A program made the position numbers and the translations under genes. This document shows positions 8,421 to 62,068 of a DNA stretch of 64,000 nt, in pieces (position 1 is the stretch's first letter; the number at the start of each line of letters is the position of its first letter). Below the pieces are notes generated by a model. It was not told the DNA's origin, made no database searches, and saw only the letters and a list, made by a program, of their open reading frames with translations. This stretch comes from an uncultured Acidobacteriota bacterium (lineage in GTDB: Bacteria; Acidobacteriota; Thermoanaerobaculia; UBA5066; Gp7-AA6), in contig CAWFIK010000003.1 of the NCBI GenBank assembly GCA_963815865.1, positions 283,771 through 347,770 of the forward strand, given 5' to 3'.

Positions 8421-8422
8421 GG

Positions 8423-24656: not shown

Positions 24657-24830
24657 GATGCGCTGTCGCCGGGGTCCTCCATCGGACCGGATCGCCCCGC
24701 TTGATTCCCTCCGCGTTGCCGGGAGTGTAATCCCTCCGCCCGGAACGCCCCCAACCGTCCCATCGCGGAGTATACGGTCCCGGCCGGAGAGGCGATTCAG
24801 GAGAAGCGCTCGATCACGGATAATGCCCTC

Positions 24831-27800
24831 GTGGCGAGTCCGGAAGAGAGAGCGGCATCCGCGAGGGAGCGGGCCGAGGCCCTGGCCGAGGTCCTCGCGG
24901 AGCGGATCCTCGTCCTGGACGGCGCCACGGGGACCTTCCTCCAGGGGGAGAACCTGACCTCGGCGGACTTCGGCGGCGAGCAGTACGAGGGGTGCAACGA
25001 GAATCTCGTCCTGACCCGGCCCGACGTCGTGCGGAAGATGCACGAGAGCTATCTCGCGGCGGGCGCCGACATGGTCGAGACCGACACGTTCGGCGGGACG
25101 CCGCTCGTTCTCGCCGAGTACGGTCTCGCGGAGAAGGCTTTCGAGATCAACGCGCAGGCGGCGCGACTGGCTCGCGAGGCCGCGGCGGAGCACTCGACAG
25201 CCGGGAACCCGCGCTTCGTCGCGGGCTCGATGGGTCCCACGACGCGGTCGGTGACCGTGACGGGGGGCGTCACGTTCGAGGAGCTGATCGGCCACTACCG
25301 GACGCAGGCCGCGGGGCTCCTCGCCGGCGGCGCCGACGTCCTGCTTCTCGAGACGACGCAGGACACGCGCAATCTCAAGGCGGGGCTGATTGCCGTCCAA
25401 GAGGCATTTGCGCAGGCGGGGTGGAGCGTGCCGGTCATGGCCTCCGTCACGATCGAGCCGATGGGGACGATGCTCGCCGGGCAGGCGATCGACGCGCTCT
25501 ACGCCTCGATCATGCACGCGCCGCTCCTGTCGGTGGGGTTGAACTGCGCGACCGGGCCGGAGTTCATGGCGGACCACCTCCGCACGCTCTCGGGGCTCGC
25601 GAGAACGCTCGTGTCGTGCTATCCCAACGCAGGGCTTCCCGACTCCGACGGCTGCTATCCGGAGACGCCGGAGAAGATCGCGGCGCACCTGACGCGCTTC
25701 ATGGAAGAGGGGCTCGTCAACATCGTCGGGGGGTGCTGCGGCACGACGCCGGCGCACATCCGGGCGCTCGCGGCCGCGGCGCGCGGGAAGAAGCCGCGCC
25801 GGCCGCCGATCCACAACAGGACGCTCGTGTCGGGCATCGAGATGCTCGAGATCAACGAGGACAACCGGCCGGTCCTGGTCGGCGAGCGCACGAACGTGCT
25901 CGGCAGCCGCAAGTTCAAGCGCCTCGTCGCGGAGGGGAAGTTCGAGGCGGCCGCCGAGATCGCCCGGGCGCAGGTCAAGGCGGGCGGCCAGGTCATCGAC
26001 GTCTGCCTCCAGGACCCGGACCGCGACGAAGTCGCCGACGCGAACGCGTTCCTCGAGCGCGCCACGAAGATGGTCAAGGTCCCGCTGATGCTCGACTCGA
26101 CGGACTGGCGGGTCATGGAGCTGGGACTCAAATGGAGCCAGGGGAAATCGATTCTGAACTCCATCAACCTCGAGGACGGCGAGGAGCGGTTCAAGGCGGT
26201 CGTTCCGCTCGCGCAGAAGTACGGCGCGGCCCTGATCGTCGGCACGATCGACGAGGACCCGGAAACCGGGATGGGCGTCACGCGCGAGAGGAAGCTCGAG
26301 ATCGCGCGGCGGAGCTACACGCTCCTGACCGAGAAGTACGGCGTCGCGCCGGAAGACATCTACTTCGACCCGCTCGTCTTCCCGTGCGGGACCGGCGACG
26401 AGAAGTACGTCGGGAGCGCGGTCGAGACGATCGAGGGGATCCGCGCGATCAAGGCGGCCTTTCCCGAGTCGCGGACGATCCTCGGGATCTCCAACGTCAG
26501 CTTCGGGCTGCCGGAGTCGGGGCGCGAGGTCCTGAACTCCGTCTTCCTCTATCACTGCGTCAAGGCGGGGCTCGATCTCGCGATCGTCAACTCCGAGAAG
26601 ATGATGCGGTATCCATCGATCCCCGAGGAGGAGCGGCGGCTCGCCGAGGACCTCCTCTACAACCGCGGCGCCGACCCGGTCGCGGCCTTCGCCGGCCACT
26701 TCAAGGCGAAGGGCGCTGCGCCGAGGAAGCCCGTCGAGCGTGCCGGCAACGCCGATCGAGCGGCTGCCGCGCTACATCCTGGAAGGCTCAAAGGAAGGGC
26801 TGCTTGACGACCTCGAGGCGGTGCGCGGCGGCGGCATGGGTCCGCTCGACATCATCAACGGCCCGCTGATGGAGGGGATGCGCGAGGTCGGCCGCCTCTT
26901 CAACGCGAACGAGCTGATCGTCGCGGAGGTGCTGCAGTCGGCCGAGGCGATGAAGGCGGCCGTGAGCCACCTCGAGAAGTTCATGGAGAAGAAGAGCGAC
27001 TCGCGCAAGGGGAAGGTCATCCTCGCGACGGTCAAGGGAGACGTCCACGACATCGGGAAGAACCTGGTCGAGATCATTCTCTCGAACAACGGCTACGAGG
27101 TCGTCAACCTCGGCATCAAGGTTCCGCCCGAGCGGCTGATCGAGGCATACCGGGAGCACCGGCCGGATCTCATCGGCCTCTCCGGCCTGCTCGTGAAGAG
27201 CGCGCAGCAGATGGTCGCGACGGCGAAGGACCTGACGGCGAGCGGAGTGGAGGCTCCGATGCTCGTCGGAGGCGCCGCGCTCTCGCAGAAGTTCACGGAT
27301 CTGAAGATCGCGCCCGCTTACGGCGGCCTCGCCGTCTACGCGCAGGACGCGATGCGGGGCCTCGCGCTCGCCGACCGGATCCTCTCGGGAGGAGAGGCGC
27401 GCGCGTCTCTCGCGGCGGAGGCGCAGGAGCGCCGGCGGTCCGCGGCCGCGGCGGCGGAGGTGGCGGAGGCCGAGAACCCGCTCGCGGCGCCGGAGGTTCG
27501 AAGCGAGAACGTCCCGATCGCCGAGCCGCTCCCCGCGCCGGATCTCAGCGGAGTACGTCCTGCCGGACCTCGACGCCGATGAAATATGGAAGTACATCAA
27601 TCCCCACATGCTCTACGCGAAGCACCTCGGCTTGCGCGGGAGCTACCGCAGGCTCAAGGAGGCCGGCGACCCGAAGCTTGCGGAGCTCGAGGCGGTCATC
27701 GCGCGCGTCCGGAGCGCCGGCTGGATCCGTCCGCGCGCGATGTATCGCTACCTGGAGGCGTACTCGGAGGGGAACGGGCTGCACCTCGTCTGCGGGGGAC

Positions 27801-28303
27801 GCCGGCTCGCGAGCTTCGCGTTCCCGCGGCAGGCAATGGGCGAGCGTCTCTGCCTCGCCGACTTCGTCGCTCCGCGAAAGGAGGGAGGCCAGCTCGACTC
27901 GGTCGCGCTCCTCATCACGACCGCGGGCGAGGGAGTTCGCGACCGGGCCGAGATTCTCAAGGCCAGCGGCGAGTATCTCCTCTGCCACTGCCTGCAGGCG
28001 CTTGCCGTCGAGACCGCCGAAGCCGCCGCCGAGTGGGTCCACCGGACTATCCGCGAGCGCTGGGGCTTCCCCGATCCCCCCGAGCTGACGATGACCGACC
28101 GCTTCCAGGCCCGTTACCGCGGCAAGCGCTACAGCCCCGGCTACCCCGCCTGCCCCGACCTCGCCGATCAGGCCACGATCTTCCAGCTTCTCCCCGGCTC
28201 CAAGATCGGCGTGGACCTGACCGAGGGCTTCATGATGGACCCCGAAGCCTCCGTCTCGGCCCTCGTCGTCCACCACCCCCACGCCCGCTACTACGCCGTC
28301 TGA
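24831..28303 (+). CDS. metH: Cobalamin-dependent methionine synthase; all four domains present but split over three reading frames (two +1 frameshifts)
   Basis: Frame A 24831-26807 holds the Hcy-binding and pterin-binding domains ([10 protein letters not shown]...[11 protein letters not shown]...). Frame B 26740-27582 holds the B12 cap and binding domain ([30 protein letters not shown]). Frame C 27608-28303 holds the AdoMet activation domain (...[11 protein letters not shown]...). Switch points are about 26715-26745 and 27550-27580. Confidence 0.9.
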
Positions 28304-28403: not shown

Positions 28404-29951
28404 TCAGTGGAGGTGGGCGGTGGGGTCGCCCGGGGGCAGGGCTGCAAAGGCGGGGTGGTCCGGGTTTCCTCGGGTCACGATCAACGCGTAGAGGAAGGGG
28501 CCGAAGCTCGTTCCCTTCCGGCCGTTGACCGCCACGATCGGCGTCCCGTCGGAGTCGAACAGGGCGGCGGCGGTGATGTCGTCTTCGAGCTTCAGGCCCG
28601 TCGCGGCGGAATCGATGCAGGCCGTCAGCGTGGCCCGAGGCATGAATGGCGCCGCGATCTCGAACACCTTCTCGCGCGTCAGGTCCTTCTGCGCGGCGAA
28701 GAGCGCGGCGGCAAACTCCTGCTCCTTGCCGGTCGGCTCCATGCAGATCCTCGATTTCGCGGCCACGCACCGGACGTCGTCCCCCTTCGCCTGGTGGACG
28801 AGGGAGTTGCAGCGTCCGTCGAGAGGAAACTGCCGCGCGTCCACGGAAAAGCTGCCAGGCGGCGAGCTCTCGCGCAGTGTCTGGAGGGTCTCCTGCAGCC
28901 CGGCGCAGTGCTCGCAGAGGATGTCGGTGAACTCGGTGATCCGCACCGGCGCCAGGTCCGATCCCGCGAGGGCGCGCGGCGGCGGGAGGCGCTGAGGCTG
29001 GGCCGCCCGGTAGATGGCCAGGGAGTCGGCGAGGGTCTGCTTGAGCGGCGGCTCGAGCGACGCGATCATGTTCGTGAGGATCTTGTCGGACTGCGGGTTG
29101 CCGGTGCCGGCCGGGGGGCGCGCGACGCTTCCGGACTGCGCGGCCGCCTCCGAGACGGCCCTCCGCCCCGCCTCCCCGCTCGATTTGGGCGTGTGCAGCC
29201 CTGGATAGAGAAGCAGCAGGAAGGCCGCGACGAACATGCCGCCGGCGATCATCACCCCGCGGGCGGCGCGCGGGAATCCCGCGGGACGCCACTGCAGGAG
29301 GGAGATGAAGCCGTAGGCCGCGACGATCAGGTACGTCACGGCGCATCCGGGGCAGAACGCGCCCGCGATCGCGCTCTCGGCGATCATCAACGCGACCGCC
29401 AGGATTCCCGAGAGCCCGACGAAACGCACCGCGCTCACGAATGGGCTGACGCTCTTCCCTTCCGCGCGGCGCAGCAGCGCGGCGAGCGGAAGGAGGAGAG
29501 CCGCAACGCTCCAGGCCAGGCCCCAGCCGGCGATCGGAAGCCCCGTGGCTCCGTGAATCGCCGCGGCGAACCCCCCGTTCCAGACCGCCTCGCAGTCGAA
29601 GCTGCCGCCGAACCCGCAGAAGGAGCTCCCTCCCGAGCGCACCAGCACGAGCTCCGACCAGAGGAAGAGGGACCAGAGCGCCGACAGAATTCCGAGCAGG
29701 CACAACTTCGCGAGGCTCCGCGGCGTGATCACCGCCCCCAGATCCGCCGGCGCCGGCGGGCGCTCCTCTGGCGCTGACACTTCAGCTTCACGCCGTTCTT
29801 TCCTGGCCACGCCGGGATTCTGACATGCGCCGACCGAGAAGCCCGCGGGAGGGAAACGCTCGTCCTCATTGCCGCCGAGGAACCGAGAGGCCGCCGTTTC
29901 GTTTCTGCCCGTCCCCATCGCGAGAACGTGGCAAACCAGTCTTCCCGGCAA
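28404..29951 (-). CDS. Vitamin K epoxide reductase (VKOR) domain fused to a C-terminal thioredoxin/DsbA-like domain
   Basis: Polytopic N-terminal half with paired Cys (FCGFGGSFDCEAV; CPGCAVTY) typical of VKOR. C-terminal half has FTDILCEHCAGL (CxxC thioredoxin fold). N-terminal start uncertain: the first about 80 aa are low-complexity. Confidence 0.7.
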   Translation of the reverse strand: MPGRLVCHVLAMGTGRNETAASRFLGGNEDERFPPAGFSVGACQNPGVARKERREAEVSAPEERPPAPADLGAVITPRSLAKLCLLGILSALWSLFLWSELVLVRSGGSSFCGFGGSFDCEAVWNGGFAAAIHGATGLPIAGWGLAWSVAALLLPLAALLRRAEGKSVSPFVSAVRFVGLSGILAVALMIAESAIAGAFCPGCAVTYLIVAAYGFISLLQWRPAGFPRAARGVMIAGGMFVAAFLLLLYPGLHTPKSSGEAGRRAVSEAAAQSGSVARPPAGTGNPQSDKILTNMIASLEPPLKQTLADSLAIYRAAQPQRLPPPRALAGSDLAPVRITEFTDILCEHCAGLQETLQTLRESSPPGSFSVDARQFPLDGRCNSLVHQAKGDDVRCVAAKSRICMEPTGKEQEFAAALFAAQKDLTREKVFEIAAPFMPRATLTACIDSAATGLKLEDDITAAALFDSDGTPIVAVNGRKGTSFGPFLYALIVTRGNPDHPAFAALPPGDPTAHLH

Positions 29952-30034
29952 CCACTCGTTGGGCCGGAGGTCCGTTTTTGAAACCTTCCATTCGGGCGCG
30001 GGTTTCTAAGGACTGAGATCGGCCCCCAAACCGC

Positions 30035-30063
30035 TTGACGAATCTTCTAAGAATAGTTAGATT
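30035..30063 (+). promoter_or_regulatory. Putative sigma70-type promoter for the Lrp-family gene (TTGACG-17 nt-TAGATT)
   Basis: cTTGACGaatcttctaagaatagtTAGATTttgcgaATG. This is a locally AT-rich island in a 70% GC genome, ending 6 nt before ATG 30070 (leaderless-like). Confidence 0.35.
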
Positions 30064-30069
30064 TTGCGA

Positions 30070-30564
30070 ATGATCAACGGTACTGATAGGCAAATACTGA
30101 ATATTCTGCAGGAAAATGCTCGAACTTCCAATGCCGAGATCGCGCGGCAGGTGGGGTTGGCGCCTTCAGCGGTGTTCGAGCGGGTCCGGAAGCTCGAAGA
30201 GAGAGGCGTCATTCGCGGCTATCGGGCGGAGATCGATCCGAAGGTCCTCGGGCTGGCGCAACTCGCGTTCACGTTCGTGCGGTCGAACGACCGGCCGGGC
30301 GGAGTCGTGACGGGGGAGAAGCTCGCCGAGATTCCGGAGATCCTCGAGGTGCATCACGTCGCCGGAGAGGACTGCTTCCTCATCAAGGCCCGCGCCCGCG
30401 ACGCGGAGGCCCTGGGACGGCTTCTGCGCGAGCGACTCGGCGCGATCGCCACGATCAGCTCGACGCGGACGACGATCGTCCTCGAGACCGTGAAGGAGAC
30501 AGCGGCGTTGCCGCTCGCCGGCGCCGAAACGGAGACCGATGACGAAGAGGCGGCGAATGCCTGA
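30070..30564 (+). CDS. Lrp/AsnC family transcriptional regulator
   Basis: MINGTDRQILNILQENARTSNAEIARQVGLAPSAVFERVRKLEERGVI (HTH_AsnC) plus a C-terminal RAM domain. An alternative TTG start at 30064 is possible. It is possibly leaderless, given the promoter-like TTGACG-17-TAGATT just upstream. Confidence 0.8.
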   Translation: MINGTDRQILNILQENARTSNAEIARQVGLAPSAVFERVRKLEERGVIRGYRAEIDPKVLGLAQLAFTFVRSNDRPGGVVTGEKLAEIPEILEVHHVAGEDCFLIKARARDAEALGRLLRERLGAIATISSTRTTIVLETVKETAALPLAGAETETDDEEAANA

Positions 30565-31504
30565 GGGTTCCACGGCGATCGCGCCCGGCCGGGCGAAGCT
30601 CGTCGCGGCGTTCGGGGCGGTGTACGTCCTGTGGGGCTCGACGTATCTCGCGATCCGGTTCGGCGTCGAGACGATTCCGCCGTTTCTGATGGCGGGGACG
30701 CGGCACCTGACCGCGGGGCTGATTCTCTTTCTCTGGACGCGGCTGCGCGGCGAGCCGCGTCCGGACAAGAGCCACTGGGCGACGGCCGTTTTCATCGGAG
30801 GGCTGATGCTTCTCGGCGGCAACGGTCTCGTGACGTGGGCGGAGCAGCGCGTGCCGTCGGGGCTCGCCGCGCTCATCGTGGCGTCGGTGCCGCTCTGGAT
30901 GGCGCTTCTGGACGGCGTGCACAAGAGGGTCCGGCCGCGCGCGCACGTGGTCGCCGGCCTCGTCATCGGCCTCGCGGGGATCCTCATGCTCGTCGCGCCG
31001 GGGCGCTTCGCTGGCAACGGGCGTGTGGACCTGCTCGGAGCGGGAGCGCTCCTGCTCGCGGCCTTGAGCTGGACGGCCGGATCTCTCTTCTCCCGCCACG
31101 CGCGGCTGCCCGAGTCGGTGCTGACCTCGACGGCGATGCAGATGATCGGCGGCGGCGTCCTCCTCTGGGTGACGGGTCTCGTCGTCGGCGAGGGGTCCCG
31201 GCTCGACCTCGCCGCCGTGTCGCAGCGCTCGATCCTCTCGCTCGGGTACCTGATCGTCTTCGGATCGTTGCTCGGCTTCTCGGCCTACGTCTGGCTCCTG
31301 AGGGCGACGACGCCGGCCCGGGTTTCGACCTACGCGTACGTCAATCCCGTCGTCGCGGTTTTCCTCGGATGGGCATTCGCTGGAGAGAGCGTGACGATTC
31401 GCGTCGCGCTCGCGACCATCGCGGTCGTCGCGTCCGTGGCGCTCATCATCCGTTACGGAGGGGCGCGAGCCAGGCAGGATCACCGGAAGGAGGCGGCGGC
31501 ATGA
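30557..31504 (+). CDS. EamA/DMT-superfamily transporter (10-TM drug/metabolite exporter)
   Basis: Two EamA repeats (…VYVLWGSTYLAIRF…, …LLAALSWTAGSLFSRH…). Overlaps the Lrp gene end. An alternative ATG at 30539. Confidence 0.8.
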   Translation: MPEGSTAIAPGRAKLVAAFGAVYVLWGSTYLAIRFGVETIPPFLMAGTRHLTAGLILFLWTRLRGEPRPDKSHWATAVFIGGLMLLGGNGLVTWAEQRVPSGLAALIVASVPLWMALLDGVHKRVRPRAHVVAGLVIGLAGILMLVAPGRFAGNGRVDLLGAGALLLAALSWTAGSLFSRHARLPESVLTSTAMQMIGGGVLLWVTGLVVGEGSRLDLAAVSQRSILSLGYLIVFGSLLGFSAYVWLLRATTPARVSTYAYVNPVVAVFLGWAFAGESVTIRVALATIAVVASVALIIRYGGARARQDHRKEAAA

Positions 31505-36129: not shown

Positions 36130-37812
36130 CTACTGCTGCGCGGCGCGCCGTCCCCACGCGAGAAAGGCCGCCGCGGAGAGGGCCGCGAGGAGAACGCCGT
36201 ATGCGGCGGCGGCGCCCGTGTCCTGCATCCGGAGCGAGGAGAGAATCTCGATGGAGATCGGGCGCGTCTCGAACGTGTAGAGGACGATCGAGACGACGAA
36301 GTCTCCGAGCGACGTCAGGAACGCGAGGGAAGCTCCGGCGAGGAGGGCGGGCGCGAGAAGCGGGATCGTGATCCGAACCAGCCGCCTCCAGCGACGCGCG
36401 CCGAGAGAGGCTCCCGCTTCGTCCAGAGAGCGGTCGAGCTGCCGGAGTCCGGCGAAGGCGGCGCGCCCGGTCAGCGGGAGATTCCGGACGAGGTAGCCGA
36501 GCGGCAGGATCGCTGCCGTGCCGACGAGCACGAAGCGTCCCGCCCAGGGAGCGTGGCGGGAGAACGTCGCCGCAAGCGCCACCGCGAAGACGGTCCCGGG
36601 GAGCGCCCACGGCACGGCGACGAGCGCTTCGAGCGCTCCGCGCCAGCGGGTTCGCCGCGCCACCGCGAGCCACGCCGCGAAGAACCCCAGCAGGAGCGCG
36701 ATCGCGGTCGAGACGACGGCCATCCAGAGTGAGTTGACGATCGGCCGCAGGCGCTCCGTCTGCGAGAAGACCGACGCCCAGTTGGTCAAGTTCAGGACCG
36801 GCGGCCACGCCTCGATCGTCCACGTCCCCGGCGGCACGAAGGAGACGAGCAGGAGCGTGGCGTGCGGGAGCAGAAGGAATGCCGCGAGCAGCCACGCGAG
36901 GAGAGCCACCAGCGTCCCGCGGCGCAGCCGGCGTCGCGAAGGGGGCGTGCCCCGGATCGCCCCGGCCACCTCGCGGCGTTTCTCCGCGCGCTGAAGGAAG
37001 TAGAGGCCGATGAGAGCGAGCGCCGCGAGCGTCGTCGTCTCGACCATCGCCATCTCGTTATCGCCGTTCAAGCGCGAGAAGACGATCTGCGTCGTCATGA
37101 CGCGAAACGTCCCGCCGAAGAGGTACGGCGCCGAAAAGGAGGAGAGGGAAGTCATGAACGTCAGCAGCGCGCCGCCGGCGAGCGCGGGCGCGAGCAACGG
37201 CAGGGTCACCCGGGCGAGGACGCGTCCCGGCCCCGCCCCGAGGGCCGCGGCCGCCTCGAGGTATGCGGCGTCCAGGCGGGCGAGCCCGGCGCGCGTGAAG
37301 AGATAGAAGTAGACGTACATCGAATAGGCGTGCACGAGCAGGACGGCGCCCGGGCCGGAGAGGCGCCAGGGCGGCTCCTTCGAGCCCGTCACCGCCTGGA
37401 GCGCGCGCGCGAAGAATCCGCTTTCTCCGTAGAGAAAGAGGAACGCGACGACGCCGACGAGCGGAGGGAGGACGACCGGCAGCGCGATCAAGGTTCCCAG
37501 CACGCGGCGCCCCGGGAAGTCCGCGCGCTCGAAGAGGAACGCGAGCGGGATGCCGATCGAGGCCGCGAGGACGACCGTGGCGAGCGAGATCCAGAGACTC
37601 GCCCAGAGCGCCTGCCACTCATCGGGCCGGCGAAAAAACTCCGCGAAGTAGCGCAGGCTCCACCCCGGCGCCGCGAGCGCTTCCCGAAACGTCAACAGAA
37701 GCGGATAACAAACCAGCCACGCAAGAAGTACGACGAGGAGTCCCGCCGCCAGACCTCCCTCTCCCCCCGGGAGAGGGCCGGGGTGAGGGCGAGACCGGCG
37801 CCAGGGCATCAA
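36130..37812 (-). CDS. ABC transporter permease with two fused permease domains (Fe(III)/thiamine FbpB-type)
   Basis: The 560-aa product has two EAA-like loops (EAAAALGAGPGRVLARVTLPLL; DEAGASLGARRWRRLVRITIPLL) and 12 predicted TM segments. Confidence 0.85.
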   Translation of the reverse strand: MMPWRRSRPHPGPLPGGEGGLAAGLLVVLLAWLVCYPLLLTFREALAAPGWSLRYFAEFFRRPDEWQALWASLWISLATVVLAASIGIPLAFLFERADFPGRRVLGTLIALPVVLPPLVGVVAFLFLYGESGFFARALQAVTGSKEPPWRLSGPGAVLLVHAYSMYVYFYLFTRAGLARLDAAYLEAAAALGAGPGRVLARVTLPLLAPALAGGALLTFMTSLSSFSAPYLFGGTFRVMTTQIVFSRLNGDNEMAMVETTTLAALALIGLYFLQRAEKRREVAGAIRGTPPSRRRLRRGTLVALLAWLLAAFLLLPHATLLLVSFVPPGTWTIEAWPPVLNLTNWASVFSQTERLRPIVNSLWMAVVSTAIALLLGFFAAWLAVARRTRWRGALEALVAVPWALPGTVFAVALAATFSRHAPWAGRFVLVGTAAILPLGYLVRNLPLTGRAAFAGLRQLDRSLDEAGASLGARRWRRLVRITIPLLAPALLAGASLAFLTSLGDFVVSIVLYTFETRPISIEILSSLRMQDTGAAAAYGVLLAALSAAAFLAWGRRAAQQ

Positions 37813-38903
37813 GAGTTCGCCCTCGGAAACGCCCGAGGCGCCGGCCCCTCCCGATCCGGCGCGGCAGAGACCTTCTCCCCCGGACGCGCCGAGTCGGAGG
37901 CCGCCTGAACCTCGACGCTCTCTCCGTTCTCGAGCGCCACGTCGAGCAGCGCCACGCGCCCCGCGTACCGCCGCGCCGTCACCTCGCCCGCGATCGAATC
38001 CGGCTCCGCCGCGCTCACGAGTCTCAATCCCTCCGGCCGAACGACGAGGTCAACTGCCGCCCCGTCCCGGAGGCCCTCGCCTCCCGTAGCGCGCCAGACC
38101 GGACCCGCCGCGAGGCGCACGCCTCCCGCCGTCCAGATTCCCGCGAGAACGCTCGACCGCCCGATGAACGTGGCGACGAAGCGGCTCGCCGGTTCCTCGT
38201 AGAGGGCTTCCGGCGGTCCGACCTGCTCCAGTCGCCCCGCGTTGATGACGGCCACGCGGTCGCCCAGGTCGAACGCCTCCTCCTGCTCGTGGGTGACGAA
38301 GAGCGTCGTGATTCCGACCTTCCGGATGATCCGCTTCAGCTCCCGCCGCGTGCGCTCGCGCAGGGTCGGATCGAGATTGGAGAACGGCTCGTCAAGCAGG
38401 AGGACGCGCGGCTGAGGCGCGAGCGCGCGCGCGACCGCGACGCGCTGCTGCTGACCTCCGGAAATCTCCCCGATCCTCCGCCGCTCGAAGCCCGCCAACT
38501 CCACCGCCGCGAGGGTCTCCGCGACGCGGCGCTCCACGTCCGCCCGCGGCATCCCCTGAGCCTCCAGGCCGAACGCGATGTTCTCCCCGACGCTCATGTG
38601 CGGAAAGAGCGCGTAGTGCTGGAACACCATCCCGAACCGCCGGCGCTCCGGGGGGAGCCGCGTCACGTCCTCCTCCTCGACGCGCACGGTTCCGGAGTCG
38701 GGCGTCTCGAACCCGGCGACCAGGCGCAGCACGGTCGTCTTGCCGCTCCCCGACGGCCCGAGCAGCGCCACGATCTCGCTTCGCGAGACCGACAGGGACA
38801 GGTCGGCTGTTACATGCAGATTGCCGAAACGCTTCTCGAGGCGATCGAGGTGAAGGAAGTCGTGAGTTGTGAACTGTGAGTTGTGAGTCGGGTCTCTTAT
38901 CAC
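37809..38903 (-). CDS. ABC transporter ATP-binding protein (FbpC/PotA-like) with a repeat-encoded N-terminal leader
   Basis: Walker A LLGPSGSGKTT, signature ISGGQQQRVAVARAL, Walker B VLLLDEPFSNLD, and a C-terminal TOBE-like domain. The only canonical in-frame start is GTG at 38901-38903, overlapping the substrate-binding-protein gene stop (GTGA). This places the (CACAACT) repeats in frame as IRDPTHNSQFTTHDF. Confidence 0.85.
   Translation of the reverse strand: MIRDPTHNSQFTTHDFLHLDRLEKRFGNLHVTADLSLSVSRSEIVALLGPSGSGKTTVLRLVAGFETPDSGTVRVEEEDVTRLPPERRRFGMVFQHYALFPHMSVGENIAFGLEAQGMPRADVERRVAETLAAVELAGFERRRIGEISGGQQQRVAVARALAPQPRVLLLDEPFSNLDPTLRERTRRELKRIIRKVGITTLFVTHEQEEAFDLGDRVAVINAGRLEQVGPPEALYEEPASRFVATFIGRSSVLAGIWTAGGVRLAAGPVWRATGGEGLRDGAAVDLVVRPEGLRLVSAAEPDSIAGEVTARRYAGRVALLDVALENGESVEVQAASDSARPGEKVSAAPDREGPAPRAFPRANS
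38862..38889. repeat. Heptamer tandem array (GTGAGTT/GTGAACT)x4; on the coding minus strand it reads (AACTCAC)n
   Basis: Directly visible. It lies between the substrate-binding-protein stop (38900) and the ABC ATPase conserved N-terminus. Confidence 0.95.
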
Positions 38904-39952
38904 TTCCCTTTGCCTCTTACTTCTCGGTCCCACTTCGCCATCCAGGCCTGGCCTTCCCGCTCGAGCTGATCCCAGTCCATCTTCGCGGGCTTCATTTTCT
39001 TCTCGACGTCGCGAGCCCACTCGGGCAAGTTCCCCTCGGGAAGGTCGGTGCGCGCGGGAAGGCGGTAGGCGCTGCGCGCGGCCGCGAGCTGCGCCTCGGG
39101 GCTGCCGATCCATTCGAGAAGCTCCCGCGCCTCGCGCGGATGCTTCGCGCCGGCGACGAGGCCGGCGGCATCGTCGATGACCGGAGTGCCGCTCGAGGGG
39201 AAGACGTAGGCGAGGTCCTTGCTTCGCTGCATCTCGAGCAGGACGTCGGGCAGGTCCCAGACCGTGACGAGCCCCTCGCGCCTCGCGATCTTCTCGACGA
39301 GGACGGAGGCGTTCATCACGTACTCCTTCGTTTGCGCGTCCAGCCGCGAGAGCCACTGGAAGCCGCGATCCGTCGAGCCCGTGTCGGCGAGCGACCGCTC
39401 GAGGATCATCCCGAAGATCGCTCGCATCGTGCCGGAGGCGATCGGATACCGGATGAGGATCTTCCCCTTCCAGCGCGGATCGAGCAGGTCCTCCCAGTCG
39501 CGCGGAGCCTCCCCCGAGGCGACGGCGCCCGAGTTGTAGACGAGGACGGCGGGAGTCCTGTAGACGCCGAAGTAGAGGTCCTGCGCCTGCCGGCTCTCCG
39601 GCGGGATCGCCGCCGACCAGGACGGCCGGTAAGGCTGCAGGAGGCCTTCGCGCGCGCCGCGTGCGAAGATCGTGTTCGGACCGCCGAACCAGAGGTCCGC
39701 CTGCGGATTCGCCTTCTCGGAGCGAACCCGGTCGTAAACCTCCTGCGATCCCATGTCGAGCCACCGCACGTCCACCTCCGGATGCTTCGCCTCGTACGTC
39801 TTCTCCACCAGGCCGAGCAGGTCTCTTCCGTGCGGCGAGTAGAGAACGATCGGCGTCCGGGCGTCTCTGTGGCAGCCGGCCGGAAGGACGAGGAGAGGCG
39901 TCAGCCAGCAGAGCGTGACAACTCTCCGGCGGCTCATGGTCCGGCGGAGCAT
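38900..39952 (-). CDS. ABC transporter periplasmic substrate-binding lipoprotein (Fe(III)/FbpA-like family)
   Basis: MLRRTMSRRRVVTLCWLTPLLVLPAGC (lipobox), then the SBP fold IVLYSPHG...DLWFGGP.... The start is ATG at 39952 or 39937. Confidence 0.8.
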   Translation of the reverse strand: MLRRTMSRRRVVTLCWLTPLLVLPAGCHRDARTPIVLYSPHGRDLLGLVEKTYEAKHPEVDVRWLDMGSQEVYDRVRSEKANPQADLWFGGPNTIFARGAREGLLQPYRPSWSAAIPPESRQAQDLYFGVYRTPAVLVYNSGAVASGEAPRDWEDLLDPRWKGKILIRYPIASGTMRAIFGMILERSLADTGSTDRGFQWLSRLDAQTKEYVMNASVLVEKIARREGLVTVWDLPDVLLEMQRSKDLAYVFPSSGTPVIDDAAGLVAGAKHPREARELLEWIGSPEAQLAAARSAYRLPARTDLPEGNLPEWARDVEKKMKPAKMDWDQLEREGQAWMAKWDREVRGKGK

Positions 39953-39988: not shown

Positions 39989-40723
39989 ATGGGCGACTTC
40001 AGCGAGTTCTCGCTCAAGGTGCAGCTGTTTCTCAAGGCGTATCGGTGGCGGCGGATCGATCCGGTGCCGTGGACGCCGCTCGGAAAGCCGCTCGCGCAGT
40101 GTCGCGTCGCGCTCGTCTCGAGCGCGGGATTCGTCCTGCCGGATCAGGAGCCGTTCGACGAGAAGAAGCGAGGCGGAGATCCGAGGTTCCGCGAGATCCC
40201 GGCGGACACGGACGTCGCCACGCTCGTCGATACCCACCGCAGCGGCTCCTTCGATCACGCGGCGATGCTCAAAGACCCGAACCTCGCGTTTCCGATCGAC
40301 CGGCTCCGGGAGCTCGCCGAGTCCGGCGTGATCGGGCAGGTCAACCGCCGGCACCTCTCCTTCATGGGCTCGCTGACGGCGACGGGCCGCCTCGTCGCCG
40401 AGACCGCCCCGGAGGCCGCGCGCCTTCTCGCCGGGGACCGCGTGGACGCGGCGCTCCTCGTCCCCGTCTGACCGATGTGCAACCAGACCGTGTGTCTGGT
40501 GGCAGCGGAGCTCGAGCGGCAGGGGATCGCGACGGTCGCGATCCAACTCCTGCGGGAAGTCGCCGTCCGCGTGCGTCCGCCGCGGGCGCTCGTCGTTCCC
40601 TTCCGCCACGGCCATCCGCTGGGAGAGCCGCACCGGCCCGAGCAGCAGCGCGCGGTTCTCGAGGCGGCGCTCCGGATGCTCGAGGACAGGGCGCTGCGTC
40701 CCCCGGCGCTGTCCGATTACTGA
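39989..40723 (+). CDS. GrdB-like (glycine/sarcosine/betaine reductase selenoprotein B family) predicted selenoprotein; in-frame TGA (Sec) at 40469-40471
   Basis: MGDFSEFSLKVQLFLKAYRWRRIDPVPWTPLGKPLAQCRVALVSSAGF...AALLVPV-TGA-PMCNQTVCLVAAELERQGIATVAIQLLREV.... The ORF stays in frame through the TGA for 82 more codons. The UGA is followed 10 nt later by a 7-bp hairpin (ACCAGAC-CGUGU-GUCUGGU) resembling a bacterial SECIS. Confidence 0.65.
40482..40500 (+). promoter_or_regulatory. Candidate bacterial SECIS hairpin for the GrdB-like selenoprotein
   Basis: accagac cgtgt gtctggt forms a perfect 7-bp stem with a 5-nt loop containing GU. It is extendable to about 10 bp with one A.G mismatch. The apical loop lies 18-22 nt downstream of UGA. 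Confidence 0.5.
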
Positions 40724-49532: not shown

Positions 49533-52500
49533 TCAACCGAGGACGACTTCGATCGTGTGGGTCTTGCCGTCGGAGGCGAGGGGGATCGCGGCGACGGAGC
49601 AGGCCTCGCCGTCGAGCGTGACGCGCGCGATGCCGCGGGTGACGCCGTGGGGGTTCTGGACGGAGAGCTGGTACTGCGCGGAGTGGTAGCGGAAGGAGAT
49701 CTTGTATCCGCGCCACGCCCTCGGAATGCACGGGTCGAGGTGGAGCGTCGTGCCGCGCAGGCGGAAGCCGAGGATCCACTCCATGCCCGCGCGGTACATC
49801 CAGCCGGCCGAGCCCGTGTACCAGGTCCATCCCCCGCGTCCGACGTGGGGGTTCTCGGTGTAGATGTCGGCGGCCGCGACATACGGCTCGACCTTGTAGC
49901 GGTGGAGTCCCGCGCGCGTCGAGGCGTGGTTGATCGGGTTCAGGATCGCGAAGAGCTCGCCCGCCTTGTCCCCTTCGTCGAGCTCGGCGAACGCGATGAC
50001 CGACCAGATCGCGCCGTGCGTGTACTGCCCGCCGTTCTCGCGCACTCCGGGGAGGTAGCCCTTGATGTAGCCCGGATCGAGCGGCGTCTTGTCGAACGGG
50101 GGAGTGAAGAGGAGCACGAGCCCGTCGCCGCGCCGCACGAGGTATTCCTCGACGGCGGCCATCGCGCGGCGGCGCCGCTCGTGGTCGCCGGCTCCGGAAA
50201 GGACGGCCCACGACTGCGCGATCGAGTCGATCCGGCACTCCGCGTTCTGCGCCGAGCCGAGCGGCGTCCCGTCGTCGAAATACGCGCGCCGGTACCAGTC
50301 TCCGTCCCAGGCGTCCCGCTCGACCGCCATCTTCAGCGCGTCCACGTGCGCGCGCCAGCGGTCCGCGCGCTCGACGTCGCCGCGCTCCCGCGCGAGGCGG
50401 GCGAACTCCCACAGGTTCGTGTGGAGGAACCAGGCGAGCCAGACGCTCTCCCCCTTCCCCTCGAGACCGACGCGGTTCATTCCGTCGTTCCAGTCCCCGG
50501 TGCCGATGAGCGGCAGGCCGTGCGCCCCGACCTCGAGGCTGCGGTCGAGCGCGCGGGCGCAATGCTCGTAGAGCGTCGCGCTCTCGGCGGAGACCTCGGG
50601 CGCGAAGAACCGCTCGAGCTCCTCGGGCTTGAGAGGCTCGCCGCGCACGAACGGCACGCGGTCGTCGAGCACGCTCGCGTCGCCGGTGACCTCGATGTAG
50701 TGCGTGACGGCGTAGGGGAGCCAGATCCGGTCGTCGGACATCCGCGTGCGGACACCTCCTCCGGACGGAGAGTGCCACCAGTGCTGCACGTCCCCCTCCT
50801 CGAACTGGCGCGAGGCGGCGCGCAGCAGGTGCCCCCGCGTGACTTCGCGGCGGGCCGCGGTCAGCGCCATGACGTCCTGGAGCTGATCGCGGAAACCGTA
50901 GGCGCCGGAGGCCTGGTAGAACGCGGTGCGCCCCCAGACCCGGCAGGAAAGGGTCTGGTAGAGAAGCCACCGGTTGAGGAGGATGTCCATCGAGCGGTCG
51001 GGCGTCTCGATCCGCACGGCGCCGAGCGTGTCGTCCCACATCCGGCGCACGGAGGCGAGGCACGCGCCGAGGTCTTCCTTGCGATAGCGCGCGATGAGAC
51101 TGCGCGCGTCGGCCTCGTTGTCCCCCTGGCCGAGGAGGAACACGACGTGCGCCTTCTCGCCGGGAGCGAGGCGCAGCGTGGTCTGCAGCGCGGCGCACGG
51201 ATCGAGCCCCGCGCCCGCCTTTCCCGAGAGCTTCCCCTCGAGGGAGAGCGCGGCGGGGGCGTCGAGGGTCCCGTTGCGGCCGAGGAACTCGGAGCGGTCC
51301 GCCGTCCACGCCGTCGGGTCCGGGGTCATGTCTGCAAAGGCCACACGCCCGGCGAACTGCTCGTTCCACGGGTTCAGCGCGAAGAGCGCCCCGCTCTCCG
51401 CGTCCCGCTGCGTGATGAGAAACGGCGCCGCGGCGCCGCGCTGAGTGCCGAGCACCCACTCGGCGTAGGCGGTGACGGAGAGATCCCGGTGCGAGCGGGA
51501 GCGGTTCTCGACGGAGAGAAACGAGATCTTGACCGGGTCCTCGAGCGGCACGAACTGCGTCAGGTCGAGCCGGATGCCGCGGCTCTCGTGCTCGAAGCGG
51601 CTGTACCCCTGCCCGTGCCGCGCCACGTAGGGCCACGCGTCGCGAGCGGGGAGGGGCGTCGCTCCCCAGATCTCGCCGGTCTCCTCGTCGCGGACGAGGA
51701 TCGCCTCGCCGGGCGGGTCGCTGACGGGGTCGTTGGACCAGGGCGTCAACTGGTTCTGCTGGCTGTTGACCGCCCAGGTGCAGCCGGAGCCGGACTCGGA
51801 CACGAAGAATCCGAACGCGGGGTTGGCGATGACGTTGATCCAGGGGGCCGGGGTCCACTGCCGCTCCCCCAGGATCGTGACGTACTCGCGCCCGTCGTCT
51901 CCGAATCCGCCGAGGCCGTTGAAGAACTCCAGCTCCAGCTGCGGCGCGGGAACGTCCCCCGTCGGCGCGCTCGGAGGCGAGGGGCGGGGAGGCCGGGCCG
52001 CCGGCTCGCGGCGAAGCAGGCGGACGATCTGCTCGGCGAGCGTGCCGTGCCGCGACAGCAGGACCACGCGCGCCGCGGAGCGGAGCAGATCGTGGTCATC
52101 GGTCGAGACGAGGTCGCGGCGCAGGAGGAAAATCCCTCCGACCGGCGGCGCCCCGTCCGCGGAATCGGCCTGGCGGCGCGAGCGCACGAGCGCCTCGAGC
52201 GCCTGCCGCAGGTCCTCGCCGTAGGAGGTCGCCTGCTCGTTGACGATCACCAGGTCCACGGCGAGCCCCTTCGTGCGCCAGTACTCGTGGGCGCGCAGAA
52301 GCTGGCGGACGATGTCCTGGTCGTCCGGATCGTCGATCCGCAAAAGCACGATCGGCAGGTCGCCGGAGATCCCGTGGGGCCAGAGCGCCGAGGGACCCTT
52401 GCGGTTGCGCAGGAGGACGTGCGCGGGGGCGCGCAGCGTCGGATCGGAATAGAGGATCCGCGTCGCGACTCTCTGGAAGAGGTGCGCCTCGTCGGCGGTA

Positions 52501-55500
52501 ATGCCGAGGTGCCGCAGCTGCACCTGGGCCTGCGTCCAGGCGACATTGGCCGTGCGCTCGAACGCCGCCGGCTCGCGGTACTTGTCGGCCAGCTCCACGG
52601 CCTTCTCGCGCGAATCCGCGGCGAGGGTCGCGAAGTGGATGCGCGCCGTCGCGCCGGCCGGCAGCCGCACGCGGCGCCGCAGGCTCATGATCGGATCGAG
52701 CACGGAGCCGACGGTGTTGGAGAGGGGGCGACCGTCCTCGATCGAGCCGGCGTTGCGGATGCCGCGGCCGCGCCCGAGGAACCGCGCGCGGTCCGTCTCG
52801 AATTGCACCGCTCCCACCGTCTCTCCCTCGACCGCCGCCACATGCGCGATCCAGATCGGCTTCTCGTCCGGCTCGCGCGGCCGGCGCGTGGCGAGGATCG
52901 CCTCGAGGTGGGGCACGAACTGCGTCTGGACGAAGAGGTTCGAGAAGGCGGGATGCGCCCGGTCCGCAGCGGAGGGCGCGAGCGCCAGCTCCGCGTAGGA
53001 GGTGATCTCGATCTCGCGCGGCCGCGTCCCGAGGTTCGTGACGGAGACCTGCCGGATCTCCGCGTCGTCTTCCGCGGAGACCACGATGTGCGTCGTCGTC
53101 GTCAGGGACGCGTCCCGTCTCCGGATCTCGACGTGGTCCTCGGAATAGAAGACCTCATACGCGCTCGCCTCCGCGCCGGCGGGCTGGTAGCCGGCCGACC
53201 AGACGCGCCCGGCGTCCACGTCGCGCAGGAAGACGTACGTTCCCCAGCAGTCGCGCGTGACGTCTTCCCGCCAGCGCGTCACGTCCCGGCCGCGCCAGCG
53301 GGAATAGCCGGAGCCCGCGGCCGTGATCATGACCGAATAGCGTCCGTTGGAGAGCAGGTGCGCGCGCGGCGTCGGGTCGTGCGGGGAGCGGAAGCGCCTC
53401 AGCACCGGCGGCACGAAGTCGCGCACGTGCAGATGGGTCGAAACCTCGTCGGCCCGCGGGCGCGCGACGGAGACCGTCGATGGGGTCCGCTCCTGCAGGA
53501 GCAGCTCCGTCGCCTGCACGGCCGGCTCGGCGTGGAAGCGTGTCCTCATCGCTCCGCGAGTGAGGACGTTGCCGAGGGCCACGACCGTCATCCCCTGGTG
53601 GTGCGCCATGACGGCGTGCACGATCGCGCCCTTCTCTCCCTCGCGCAATCTCAGGGCCGTGTAGTCCACGGCCTCGTAGAACCCGTACCGGCCGAGGGCG
53701 CCCGCCGCCGCGAGGCGCTCGAAGTTGCGGACGGCGGCGGCGGCGTCCACCATCGCCGCGAGGGCCGTCGCATACGGCGCGACGACGAGGTCCTCCGAGA
53801 GGCCGCGCTTCAGGCCCAGGCCGCTGACGCCGAAGTTGGAGTACTGATAGGTGAAGTGCAGGTCCTGGGCGTTGAAGGCCGACTCCGAGATGCCCCACGG
53901 CACGCCGCGCTCCTCGCCGTAGGTGATCTGCCTCTGCACGATGAGCCGGTTGGTCTGGTCGAGGAGGCTTCCGGCCGGCGCCTTCATGACGAGATCCGGC
54001 ATCAGGTACTCGAACATCGAGCCGGACCAGGAGATGAGCGCCGAGCCCTTTCCGATCGGGGTCAGCGAGCGGCCGAGGCGGAACCAGTGGGACACGGGAA
54101 CGTCTCCGCGCGCGATCGCGATGAAGCTCGCCAGGCGCGCCTCCGAGGCGAGCAGGTCGTAGTACCCCGGGTCCAGCCGGCCGTCGGACAGGTTGAAGCC
54201 GATCGAGAAGAGCTTGCGCTCGGGGTCGAAGAGGAACGTGAAGTCCATCTCTTCGATGAGGCCCGTGGCCAGGCGGGACAGCTCCGTCAGGCGCCGGGTC
54301 AGGGCCGCGACGCGGCCGGCGCAGTGCCGCAGCTCCCGAACGAGCGTGGCGGCGGCCGCGCCTCCCTCGGCGCCGATCTTCTCGATTTCCCCGGCGGCCG
54401 CCTCATAGGCGTCGGGAAGCGCCTCGAGGGGCGCCTCTTCTCCGTTCAACTCCTCGAGCGTCCGGGAGGCGGCGGCGGGGAGCTCCGAGGAGCGCGGCGA
54501 GCCGCCGGGCAGGAAGCGGGTCCAGCACTGCGTCTCCTCGAAGTCGCGGGCATGGCTCGCGACCGCGAGGGCGACTGCCTGGGCCCATTCGAGCGCCTCC
54601 GCGAAGCGCGCGTCCGGCCGGTCCTGGGCGAGCGCCCGGACTGTATCCAGGACGGTCTCGGCCCTCTGCGAGAGCTGCGAGAGGCGCCGGCCCCACTGTG
54701 CCGCGGAGACGGGCTCCGGCCCGAGGCACGCTTCGAGCGCGTCGAGCGACGTCTCCAGCTGCCGGCGCGTCACGGCTCCCTCTTCCCCCGGGGCGAGGTC
54801 CGCGGCGGTCTCGCGCAGGAGCGCGAAGGCGTCGCCGATCCCCCCGAGCGCGCCGGCGAAAGTGATGGGGTTCCCGATCTGCTCGAGGCACGCCTGTTTG
54901 ACGACGATGAGGTCTCCGGCCAGGTTGCCGCTGTCCACCGTCGAGACATACCGCGGATCGAGAGGCTTCAGGCTCCGCGTGTCATACCAATTGTAGAGGT
55001 GGCCCCTGTACCGCTCGAGCCGCCCGACCGTTCTGAGGGTCTCCTCGAGGCGGTCGACCATCTCCTCCGTCCCGATCCAGCCGAGGTCGTTCGCGGTGAT
55101 CGTCGAAAGGAGAAGAAGGCCGATGTTCGTCGGCGAGGTACGGTGCGCCACGACCGGCTGGGGAAGCTGCTGGAAGTTGTCGGGCGGAAGCGCGTTCTCC
55201 TCCGTCCGGGCGAATACGTCGAAGAACCTCCAGGTCCGCCGCGCGATCGAGCGCAGGAACCTCGTGTCGGCGGCCGGCAGCGGTTTCTCCTCCTCGTCGC
55301 GGGGGGGGAGGCTTGCCCAGCGGGCCACGGCCGGAGAGGCGACCCAGGCCGCGAGGAAGAGGCCCGCCTGGGCGAAGGAGCCCGGCCGCAGAAGCGCGAC
55401 GGCGAGCGCGGCCGCGACCGCCAGGAGCGGAGCGGAGCTCATGCGCTGGTAGAACCCGGAGAGCGCGAGGTCGAGGTGGCGCCGCGCCTGTCGGGCGGGG

Positions 55501-58289: not shown

Positions 58290-58463
58290 TCCGGTTCCCC
58301 TCGCCGCCGGCGGCGAAGGGCCGCGGCCGAACCGATCCGCCGGGCGAGCAGAGCCTCCGCCTGCTGAGGACGAAGTCGTTTGAGAAATTCATCCGCAGAG
58401 CAACGAGGCAGCAGAAACCGTGCCAGTCCATGACGGCACGCGGAGGCGCGCGGCGCGACCGCG

Positions 58464-60739: not shown

Positions 60740-62068
60740 ATGAAGTCGCCGATGATGACGTTCGATCGCCGGGCTTTTGTGGAATGGTTCGACAGGAACC
60801 GCAGGCGCTCGCGGGAGTTGTTCGACACTGTCGTTCCCGAGGCCTACGAAGCGCGCCCGATCCCTTTGCGCAATCCGATCTGTTTCTACGAGGGGCATCT
60901 GCCGGCGTTCAACGTGAACACGCTGGTCAAGAGGGGACTCCGGGAGCGCGGAATCGATGCCGGCTACGAGGTCCTGTTCGAGCGCGGTATCGACCCGGAA
61001 GACGAGTCGGCGGTCGGCCGCGCCCCGTTCCGCTGGCCGTCTCGAGAGCAGATCCAGTCGTACGGAGATCGCGCCGACCGGGCGATCCGGGAGGCGTTGC
61101 TCGAAAAGGACGTCCTCCGCGACGACCAACCTGTGCTCCGCGGCGGCCTTGCCGTGTACACGGTGCTCGAGCACGAGCCGATGCACCAGGAGACGCTGCG
61201 TTACATGTGGCACCGCCTTCCGTTCGACAGGAAGATCCGTCCCGCCTCCGAGCCGCCGTTGCTGGCCGGCAACGGTTCGCCGCCGCCGAGAACCGTCCGG
61301 GTCCCGGCCGGCGTGGCGACGCTCGGCGCCGCGCGCGATCGTGTGCCCTTCGGCTGGGACAACGAATTTCCCGAGCACCGCGTCGAAGTCGCCGGTTTCG
61401 AGATCGACGTCTTCAACGTCACAAATGGCGAGTTCCTGAAGTTCGTCGAGGCGGGGGGGTACGGCAAGCGCGAGCTCTGGGACGAGGAGGGATGGGAGTG
61501 GCGTTCGCGAGGCGGCGTCGAGCACCCGACTTTCTGGGAGCGCGCGGATGGAACCTGGTCCTGGCGCGGAATGTACGAGGCAATTCCGCTCCCCGCGGCC
61601 TGGCCCGTATACGTCTCGCACGCGGAGGCGGAGGCCTACGCCCGCTGGAAGGGGAAACGTCTGCCGACCGAAGCGGAGTTTCACCGCGCCGCCTACGGGA
61701 CGCCGGGCGGCGAGGAGCTCTCCTATCCGTGGGGGGAAGAGCCGCCCGACGAGACCCGGGGGAATTTCGACTTCCGCCGCTCCGACCCGGTGCCGGTCGG
61801 CTCGTTTCCTGCGGGCGCGAGCGCGTGGGGAGTCCTCGACCTCGTCGGCAATGGCTGGGAATGGACTTCGACGGTGTTCAGCGGTTTTCCCGGATTCGAG
61901 CCGATGGCCTCCTACCCCGTCTATTCCACGGACTTCTTCGACGGAAAACACTGGGTCATGAAGGGCGCGTCCCCGGCCACCGCGAAAGAGCTGCTGCGGA
62001 GAAGCTTTCGGAATTGGTTCCGCGGGAACTATCCGTATGTGTATGCGGGGTTCCGGTGTGCCAAGTGA
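60739..62068 (+). CDS. egtB: Ergothioneine biosynthesis sulfoxide synthase (DinB_2 + FGE-sulfatase domains)
   Basis: MKSPMMTFDRRAFVEWFDRNRRRSRELF...FYEGHLPAF...HEPMHQETL (DinB-like iron-binding), then the FGE domain VTNGEFLKFV...VSHAEAEAYARWKGKRLPTEAEF...GNGWEWT. The ATG shares CATG with the divergent peptidase start. Confidence 0.85.

Follow-up and report, generated by a model that had tools for sequence, protein, structure and literature searches.

Introduction

Does the TGA triplet that interrupts a long reading frame in the DNA of an Acidobacteriota-like bacterium end a short protein, or is it decoded as selenocysteine (Sec), and if so, what kind of protein is made? The frame lies within a stretch of 64 kb (hereafter the window). 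A first-pass annotation, made from these letters alone, had proposed that the gene encodes a GrdB-like selenoprotein in which the TGA supplies the first residue of a U-x-x-C motif and is followed by a hairpin resembling a bacterial SECIS element. Its coordinates for the ORF, the TGA and the hairpin were all correct on re-checking. The reading favoured here, to which we assign a probability of about 0.9, is that the gene encodes one selenoprotein of 244 residues whose UGA is read by way of a SECIS element, and that this protein is a stand-alone relative of the PrdB and GrdB-type B subunits and not a D-proline reductase.

Results

The reading frame continues past the TGA

Translation of the plus strand from the start ATG gives 160 sense codons, the in-frame TGA, 83 more codons and finally a stop codon, itself TGA, at 40721-40723; the coordinates of all features are collected in Table 1. 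The peptide across residue 161 reads LLVPV-U-PMCNQTVCLVAAELER, so that the TGA stands in the context V-P-V-U-P-M-C-N-Q-T-V-C, the U-x-x-C arrangement that had been claimed for it. At the other end of the protein the start motif MG..EFSL is common to the window protein and its homologues. The first of the 83 downstream codons specifies proline and the others form an ORF of 82 amino acids starting at the ATG at 40475.

It had also been predicted that automated annotation would truncate or split the gene, and this is what the databases contain. The 160-residue protein P0012, from a contig of 687,547 bp, is 100% identical to the N-terminal part of the window protein, and on an identical 2-kb contig the gene is called as separate ORFs of 160 and 82 amino acids. 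Gene callers routinely cut PrdB-like selenoprotein genes in two.

Table 1. Features of the selenoprotein locus, in window coordinates; assignments to selenocysteine and SECIS are predictions
Feature	Position	Strand	Basis or remark
Complete PrdB-like gene, predicted selenoprotein	39989..40723	+	244 residues including Sec161; translation, and full-length Cys-type homologues aligned end to end
N-terminal 160 codons	39989..40468	+	Equals the truncated 160-aa database protein P0012; Pfam GRDB match
UGA codon, predicted Sec161, residue 1 of UxxC	40469..40471	+	Homologue column holds TGA or Cys; equivalent to PrdB residue 151
C-terminal 83 codons after Sec	40472..40720	+	Called by gene callers as a separate 82-aa ORF, 40475-40723
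Cys164 codon, putative resolving Cys of U-P-M-C and 5' arm of lower SECIS stem	40478..40480	+	Invariant in the alignment; equals C154 of PrdB P0245
Bacterial SECIS hairpin (predicted)	40478..40504	+	Covariation, invariant loop GU, minimum free energy (MFE), bSECIS model criteria
ABC substrate-binding protein	38903-39937		Divergent from selenoprotein gene
ABC ATPase	37812-38897		Divergent from selenoprotein gene
Fused ABC permease	36133-37812		Divergent from selenoprotein gene

The TGA is conserved and the codons beyond it resemble coding sequence

Homologues were collected by a search of 5.8 billion proteins, which gave 3462 matches, and by a genome scan with one genome per species, which returned 80 loci. 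At the column assigned to Sec, the gene copies from the scan hold TGA in 74 cases (71 distinct sequences) and TGC in 2, while TGC or TGT occupies it in the five Cys-type loci examined. A cysteine is likewise found there in 13 full-length proteins, which read VPVCPMCNQ. The full-length relatives are about 247 amino acids long, 59-73% identical to the query, and cover 97-100% of it (100% in all but two). Among the matches listed, dozens of closer relatives (73-89% identical) end exactly at residue 160.

The TGA-bearing copies come from metagenome-assembled genomes (MAGs) spanning about ten phyla. Their hosts belong to the Acidobacteriota (Thermoanaerobaculia), Myxococcota, Desulfobacterales, Verrucomicrobiota, Brocadiaceae and Binatia, and further to the Gemmatimonadales, Nitrospirae, Sumerlaeota, Spirochaetales, Gammaproteobacteria and Bacteroidetes; the nearest TGA relative, from an Acidobacteriota MAG, is 87% identical.

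In each of 69 TGA homologues, a further 83-131 codons follow the TGA without a stop. Identity to the window averages 72% in this downstream part as against 68% in the N-terminal part, and the nucleotide differences in the downstream part are distributed over codon positions 1, 2 and 3 as 1082:812:2629. In the alignment of homologues the C-terminal motif PPRAL.VPF is invariant, as is Cys164. Since the frames are open, the identity is high and the differences favour the third position, the codons after the TGA are evidently translated and under purifying selection. The frame continuation claimed in the first-pass annotation is therefore real, at 83 codons. A genuine C-terminus at the TGA, or an unconserved tail, would have spoken against readthrough; neither is what the homologues display.

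These data bear on one group of other explanations of the TGA, namely that it is a sequencing or assembly error, an inactivating mutation in a pseudogene, or a sense codon in a reassigned code. The source is a metagenome-type assembly, and a methionine synthase nearby that extends over three frames could indicate indel errors. The same TGA is nonetheless found in 74 independently assembled homologues, and again in a contig from an independent read set (L001) that is identical to the window; purifying selection on the downstream frame argues against a pseudogene. As for reassignment, only two TGAs in the window have 50 stop-free codons of high GC3 on both sides, and the other one (at 8378) is a gene boundary. 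Because the selenoprotein gene itself also ends with TGA, the code of the window is the standard one, with TGA otherwise a stop. Hardly any credence can be given to this group of explanations.

A different possibility is that the TGA is a true stop and that translation re-initiates at the ATG at 40475, the resulting proteins of 160 and 82 amino acids assembling as a split PrdB-like protein. This matches the output of the gene callers, and the ATG is placed only one codon past the TGA. The ATG, however, is not conserved: many TGA homologues have Leu, Ile, Thr or Val codons in its place (CTG, ATA, ATT, ATC, ACG, ACC, GTA), so there is no conserved restart site. Furthermore, each Cys-type homologue is one continuous chain whose Cys falls exactly at the TGA column, and a stop at this point would cost the UxxC motif its catalytic residue. 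The hairpin, considered next, also bears on this explanation.

A hairpin follows the TGA

The perfect 7-bp stem and the 5-nt loop containing GU that had been described at 40482-40500 were found there. In the upper stem ACCAGAC (40482-40488) pairs with GUCUGGU (40494-40500), closing the apical loop CGUGU (40489-40493). The stem can be extended, as had been suggested, across one mismatch: beyond A.G (40481/40501), UGC at 40478-80 pairs with GCA at 40502-04. The upper stem starts ten nucleotides after the TGA, and the hairpin as a whole lies 6 nt downstream of it.

The published bSECIS model (that of bSECISearch, as summarised in PMC13188914) describes a loop of 3-9 nt with G within its first two positions and then G or U, an upper stem of 4-16 bp, a distance of 16-37 nt from UGA to loop, and an MFE of -7.5 kcal/mol or below. 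The window element falls within all four published ranges: its loop of 5 nt has G at position 2 followed by U, its stem is 7 bp, its UGA-to-loop distance is 17 nt and its MFE, calculated for a 39-nt element, is -17.5 kcal/mol (z = -3.07). A longer fold of 71 nt is unremarkable (z = -1.05). The sequence of the element is unrelated to that of the E. coli fdhF SECIS, and neither a scan of the whole window against Rfam at gathering thresholds nor one of 40440-40560 at E <= 10 gave a SECIS or other credible RNA family; it is therefore the published consensus model, together with covariation, that identifies the element as a SECIS.

Taken alone, the hairpin is weak evidence: the window has a GC content of 69%, and of its 1097 TGA trinucleotides 105 (9.6%) are followed by a hairpin of at least 7 bp beginning 4-20 nt past the triplet. 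The in-frame TGA is in itself unusual, being one of the two with coding-like codons on both sides. That a hairpin such as this is statistically not unusual in a single sequence could be taken to favour a true stop with re-initiation. It is the comparison of homologues that is decisive.

The hairpin covaries in the Sec forms

The 71 distinct TGA sequences align without gaps over the hairpin, and the counts that follow are raw counts over these sequences, which are phylogenetically related. A helix of ten pairs is 95.2% paired across them. Both sides have changed at five of the helix pairs, and the observed covariation was reached in none of 500 shuffles; as a control, sliding the partner by 1-3 columns lowers pairing to 21-43%. 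At pair 19:27 (40487/40495 in the window), 32 sequences have A:U, 34 have G:C and 5 are exceptions (Fisher p 1.2e-14); at pair 15:31, C:G is found in 49 sequences and U:A in 13 (p 2.5e-7). The two states of the main covarying pairs are scattered over phyla.

Because the hairpin lies over conserved codons, it owes some of its conservation to the protein. Column 27 is a synonymous third position, and the rare T-ending codons for Cys, Gly or Ser occur there exactly where the partner base, which is the first position of a Thr or Ala codon, is A. The loop follows the pattern C/G-G-U-N-N, in which G22 and U23 are invariant. These are the first two bases of a Val codon that all 71 Sec forms have. None of the 13 Cys forms has it; Met, Ala or Ser is found there instead. 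Moreover, of the 7 pairs in the upper stem the five Cys-type loci retain no more than 3-6, and they lack the loop GU.

The hairpin thus behaves as a feature of the RNA tied to the TGA, in a pattern expected if it were needed only for recoding of UGA, and the SECIS-like character first suggested for it holds up on the model ranges, the covariation and the GU kept in TGA forms. A true stop followed by re-initiation gives no role to the covariation or to a loop GU retained only where the TGA is, and we regard that explanation as very improbable. Together, the homologue column, the downstream frame and the covariation, and not the hairpin alone, settle the reading of the in-frame TGA, which almost certainly encodes selenocysteine. 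The same three lines of comparison support the core of the first-pass proposal, that the TGA is a Sec codon within the UxxC motif of a protein belonging to the GRDB superfamily.

The protein is related to PrdB and GrdB

Residues 13-158 match the Pfam GRDB family (PF07355) with 44.5 bits against a cut-off of 22, which passes the superfamily threshold. The best curated family is NCBIfam TIGR04483 (PrdB), at 133.8 bits (E 6e-39), short of the equivalog cut-off of 300 bits. The GrdB model TIGR01917 scores 51.8 bits against a cut-off of 602 and is matched only at profile positions 197-421; more generally the GrdB, GrdF and GrdH models are matched in their C-terminal halves only, with 52-65 bits against cut-offs of 602-800, and the subfamily model TIGR01918 is narrowly missed (54.5 vs 65.45). 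The designation "GrdB-like" was correct as to the superfamily, but the protein is nearer to PrdB. It scores under both cut-offs and belongs to neither family.

A library-wide HMM search gave 3094 clusters at 50% identity with E <= 1e-3, and 159 with E <= 1e-30. Among them is a bona fide PrdB, P0245 (453 bits with TIGR04483), which shares 35% identity with the window protein along 210 residues. Its C151 and C154 stand opposite Sec161 and Cys164 in the alignment; in the PrdB of C. difficile, U151 is the catalytic residue (PMC11229817). The window protein resembles the D-proline reductase PrdB of C. difficile and Acetoanaerobium sticklandii in length and in the motifs FPIDRL.EL and G.IG, and PrdB likewise has its Sec encoded by UGA with a SECIS after it in the coding region (PMC11229817). 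It differs in having U-P-M-C where PrdB has C/U-G-T-C, and in possessing an extra conserved N-terminal segment (residues 1-24, with invariant Y.WRR..P.P) together with HRS/DH motifs.

The likeness to GrdB, GrdF and GrdH (TIGR01917, NF040794, NF040795) is confined to the C-terminal half, which is homologous over profile positions of about 200-420 of about 431, including the UxxC with its Sec. In contrast to GrdB, the window protein is half as long (244 vs about 430 amino acids), the N-terminal half of GrdB being missing, and the UxxCxxC of GrdB corresponds to UxxCxxxxC in the window protein, in which the last Cys is variable (C, G, S or D).

For the Cys homologue P0001 there is an AlphaFold model with pLDDT 93; no relative turned up when PDB sequences were searched with the family profile. 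Most C-terminal extensions of the longer homologues have no Pfam domain. One fusion to an HTH domain, one to an AMP-binding domain and one weak UGSC match occur among them, and an assignment of function from such fusions was rejected as they are too sporadic.

The relationship to PrdB raises the question of whether we are dealing with a true PrdB, or with its counterpart in an analogous amino-acid reductase, whose PrdA-like pyruvoyl partner would be encoded at another place in the genome. In favour of this, no curated family scores higher than PrdB, and bona fide PrdB has the FPIDRL.EL motif and the Sec and Cys columns in common with the window protein. Many homologues are labelled "D-proline reductase PrdB" by JGI, and selenoproteome surveys, in their passages on the family, file it under proline reductase (PMC1088965, PMC2398784). 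The score, on the other hand, is far below the 300-bit cut-off, identity to true PrdB is low, and the invariant Y.WRR..P.P and the HRS/DH motifs are the family's own and absent from PrdB. Further evidence comes from the genes around it.

Neither PrdA nor another conserved partner is found nearby

True PrdB is encoded in a cluster of prdA, a small ORF and prdB. This is the arrangement at two true PrdB loci (L085 and L086), where prdA (PF09338) and ORF149 precede prdB, and P0245 lies in such a cluster. A tblastn search with the PrdA of a true PrdB cluster (E <= 1e-3) gave no match in about 1.2 Mb of sequence, made up of the 64-kb window and 83 related loci. Unlike PrdB, the window gene has no prdA, prdH, prdC, prdD, prdE or prdF next to it, and, unlike GrdB, no grdA, grdC, grdD, grdE, trxA or trxB among its neighbours; none of the 31 window ORFs scanned has a grd operon domain. 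When all ORFs were clustered, no neighbour family was common to more than 10 of 81 loci, so a conserved partner gene is also lacking. Many of the phyla that host the PrdB-like family are not known as Stickland fermenters, which we count against a true PrdB as well. We consider it improbable that the protein is a PrdB subunit with a distant partner; a stand-alone PrdB-like UxxC selenoprotein better suits its scores under the cut-offs and the absence of PrdA from the window and the 83 loci. With neither an adjacent PrdA pyruvoyl subunit, here or in any relative, nor a conserved partner, the gene product does not appear to be a D-proline reductase.

The immediate neighbours are an ABC importer, transcribed divergently, and a convergent DUF4412 gene. 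The importer had been described as of the Fe(III) type. That it is divergent is right, but its class is broader (Fe(III)/thiamine/2-aminoethylphosphonate) and its best matches are of the PhnS/T/U type, all below threshold. The upstream importer and a GSDH-like gene are shared by the window with four close Acidobacteriota relatives only, whereas the Desulfobacterales loci have an acyl-CoA synthetase upstream and an alpha/beta-hydrolase-OsmC fusion downstream. The synteny is clade-local, and since linkage to the importer is conserved only in those four relatives, a functional link between importer and selenoprotein is without support.

Scans for promoters and terminators in the vicinity of the selenoprotein gene gave nothing. 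Genes for selA, selB, selD and tRNA-Sec were not found in the 64-kb window or the related loci, a SelD probe (an approximate E. coli sequence) and ARAGORN giving no SelD and no tRNA-Sec; as the window is less than 10% of a 687-kb contig, this is uninformative.

Discussion

The comparisons above lead to a simple picture of how this gene would be expressed. During translation the UGA at residue 161 would be decoded as selenocysteine and, by the established route of bacterial Sec decoding, the hairpin would recruit SelB-GTP-Sec-tRNA(Sec) to the ribosome. The product is best regarded as a stand-alone protein akin to the selenoprotein B subunits of the D-proline and glycine reductases, with a Rossmann-like alpha/beta domain, in which Sec161 and Cys164 occupy the columns of the catalytic Sec151 and Cys154 of PrdB. 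By analogy with PrdB and GrdB, Sec161 could act as the nucleophile and form a Se-C or Se-S adduct; Cys164 may then resolve this adduct to give a selenenylsulfide, which might in turn be reduced by a thiol system such as thioredoxin.

The locus also illustrates how a SECIS within a coding sequence constrains the protein that it overlaps, the Val codon and the rare T-ending codons being fixed only in Sec forms. As to annotation, the gene should be given as one CDS of 244 amino acids with a transl_except for Sec at 40469-71, in place of a 160-aa fragment and an 82-aa hypothetical ORF. A like correction is due for hundreds of database entries that end at residue 160.

The family itself is not new. 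In the Sargasso Sea, "Proline reductase PrdB", described by its UxxC motif and pfam07355, ranked third in abundance among known selenoprotein families, with 42 Sec forms and 1 Cys form (Zhang et al. 2005, PMC1088965), and in the GOS data it was among the most abundant, with 235 Sec and 110 Cys forms (Zhang & Gladyshev 2008, PMC2398784); a further paper lists it for Anaeromyxobacter and Geobacter uraniumreducens (PMC1794560). In the passages of these three papers on the family, the name is given by homology only and PrdA goes unmentioned (PMC1088965, PMC2398784, PMC1794560); the word PrdA does not occur in PMC2398784. The window protein and its relatives share with this environmental family the PF07355 domain, a length of about 240-250 amino acids, a Sec that comes first in UxxC, an occurrence in non-clostridial environmental bacteria and a predominance of Sec over Cys forms, here 74 gene copies to 2 in the genome scan. 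Nothing material separates the two, the likeness being drawn from the published description of the family. The window gene is one more, ordinary member, from an Acidobacteriota-like MAG, of a family surveyed since 2005, and a selenoprotein specialist would find nothing surprising in it. In literature searches, no study devoted to PrdB-like or GrdB-like proteins of the stand-alone kind was found.

What the locus says of its host is that this Acidobacteriota-like bacterium very probably uses selenocysteine, judging from the gene itself. For the family, it is a further indication that the "PrdB" selenoproteins so abundant in the environment function without PrdA. Stand-alone PrdB-like proteins, with their 159 clusters at E <= 1e-30 and 3094 at E <= 1e-3, are overwhelmingly of the Sec type across about ten phyla, and we lean towards the view that they may be a distinct, PrdA-independent selenoenzyme with a substrate and conserved N-terminal and HRS/DH motifs of its own, rather than subunits of proline reductase. 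If that is true, two decades of selenoproteome surveys would have mislabelled one of the most abundant selenoprotein families in the environment.

A TGA between two ORFs and a probably false tRNA call

Besides the TGA that is almost certainly read as Sec161 in the PrdB-like selenoprotein gene, the only TGA of the window with stop-free, high-GC3 flanks on both sides is that at 8378-8380 on the forward strand, where it separates two ORFs (8090-8380 and 8381-9586) that lie in one frame. The peptide around this codon is of low complexity, and neither ORF gave a match in Pfam; the TGA was treated as a gene boundary.

ARAGORN called a 95-nt tRNA-Arg (CCT), with its anticodon at position 33, on the reverse strand at 30434-30528. 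At the Rfam gathering score no tRNA was seen within the whole 64-kb window, and the called interval overlaps the stop-to-stop frames of two forward-strand ORFs, 30061-30564 and 30494-31504, the latter being an EamA-type gene whose interval is that of the frame rather than one from a defined start. The call is probably a false positive, and it does not represent a tRNA-Sec.

Other enzyme genes of the window

In the domain scan of the window ORFs, cobalamin-dependent methionine synthase (MetH) is represented by all four of its domain groups, with their order kept, spread over three different reading frames. This arrangement reflects either a natural split with overlapping genes or two frameshifts, which would be assembly errors or the mark of a pseudogene.

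Methionine synthase domain matches in the window
Feature	Position	Strand	Basis
Cobalamin-dependent methionine synthase domain groups (four)	24705-28300	+	domain matches of ORFs
S-methyl_trans + Pterin_bind	24705-26804	+	domain matches
B12-binding	26605-27579	+	domain match
Methionine synthase activation domain	27305-28300	+	domain match

Also present in the window, at 60503-63098 (+), is an EgtB-like gene (DinB_2 and FGE-sulfatase) adjoining an EgtD-like gene (Methyltransf_33, 297 bits); these neighbours look like an ergothioneine biosynthesis pair. On the reverse strand, a VKOR domain and a DsbA/thioredoxin-like domain lie within one ORF (28407-30005), which is a predicted fusion protein for disulfide-bond formation, and a single ORF of 2951 aa occupies 49536-58388. 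The domain scan of the latter gave a glucoamylase domain, two GH94 supersandwich domains, a GH94 catalytic domain and a GH65 C-terminal domain, an architecture that resembles that of cyclic beta-1,2-glucan synthases.

Variants, copies and neighbours of the PrdB-like gene

Several variants occur among the database proteins of the GRDB-domain family, namely P0022, P0207, P0213, P0131 and similar proteins. P0022 has glycine at the Sec/Cys column, P0207 carries an HTH_3 domain at its N-terminus, and the region of P0213 around its Sec site weakly matches the UGSC selenoprotein family (E 9e-4). Furthermore, a group of members of 380-415 aa is extended at the C-terminus by about 150 aa, a stretch in which Pfam finds no domain.

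One Binatia MAG contig (L009) bears two copies of the PrdB-like gene, at 10134 and 14317, with 4.2 kb between them; each carries the TGA with its hairpin, the two stems differing at synonymous positions.

In a clade of Desulfobacterales/delta-proteobacterial MAGs (L010, L030, L035, L037, L038, L062, L071 and L077), an acyl-CoA synthetase-like gene precedes the PrdB-like gene on the same strand in four loci (L030, L035, L038 and L077), and an alpha/beta-hydrolase-OsmC fusion follows it within 250-480 nt in all except L030. A single database protein, P0274, has an AMP-binding C-terminal part fused to the GRDB domain. The Desulfobacterales gene order, together with this fusion, may represent a lineage-specific functional link, or it may be mere inherited gene order.
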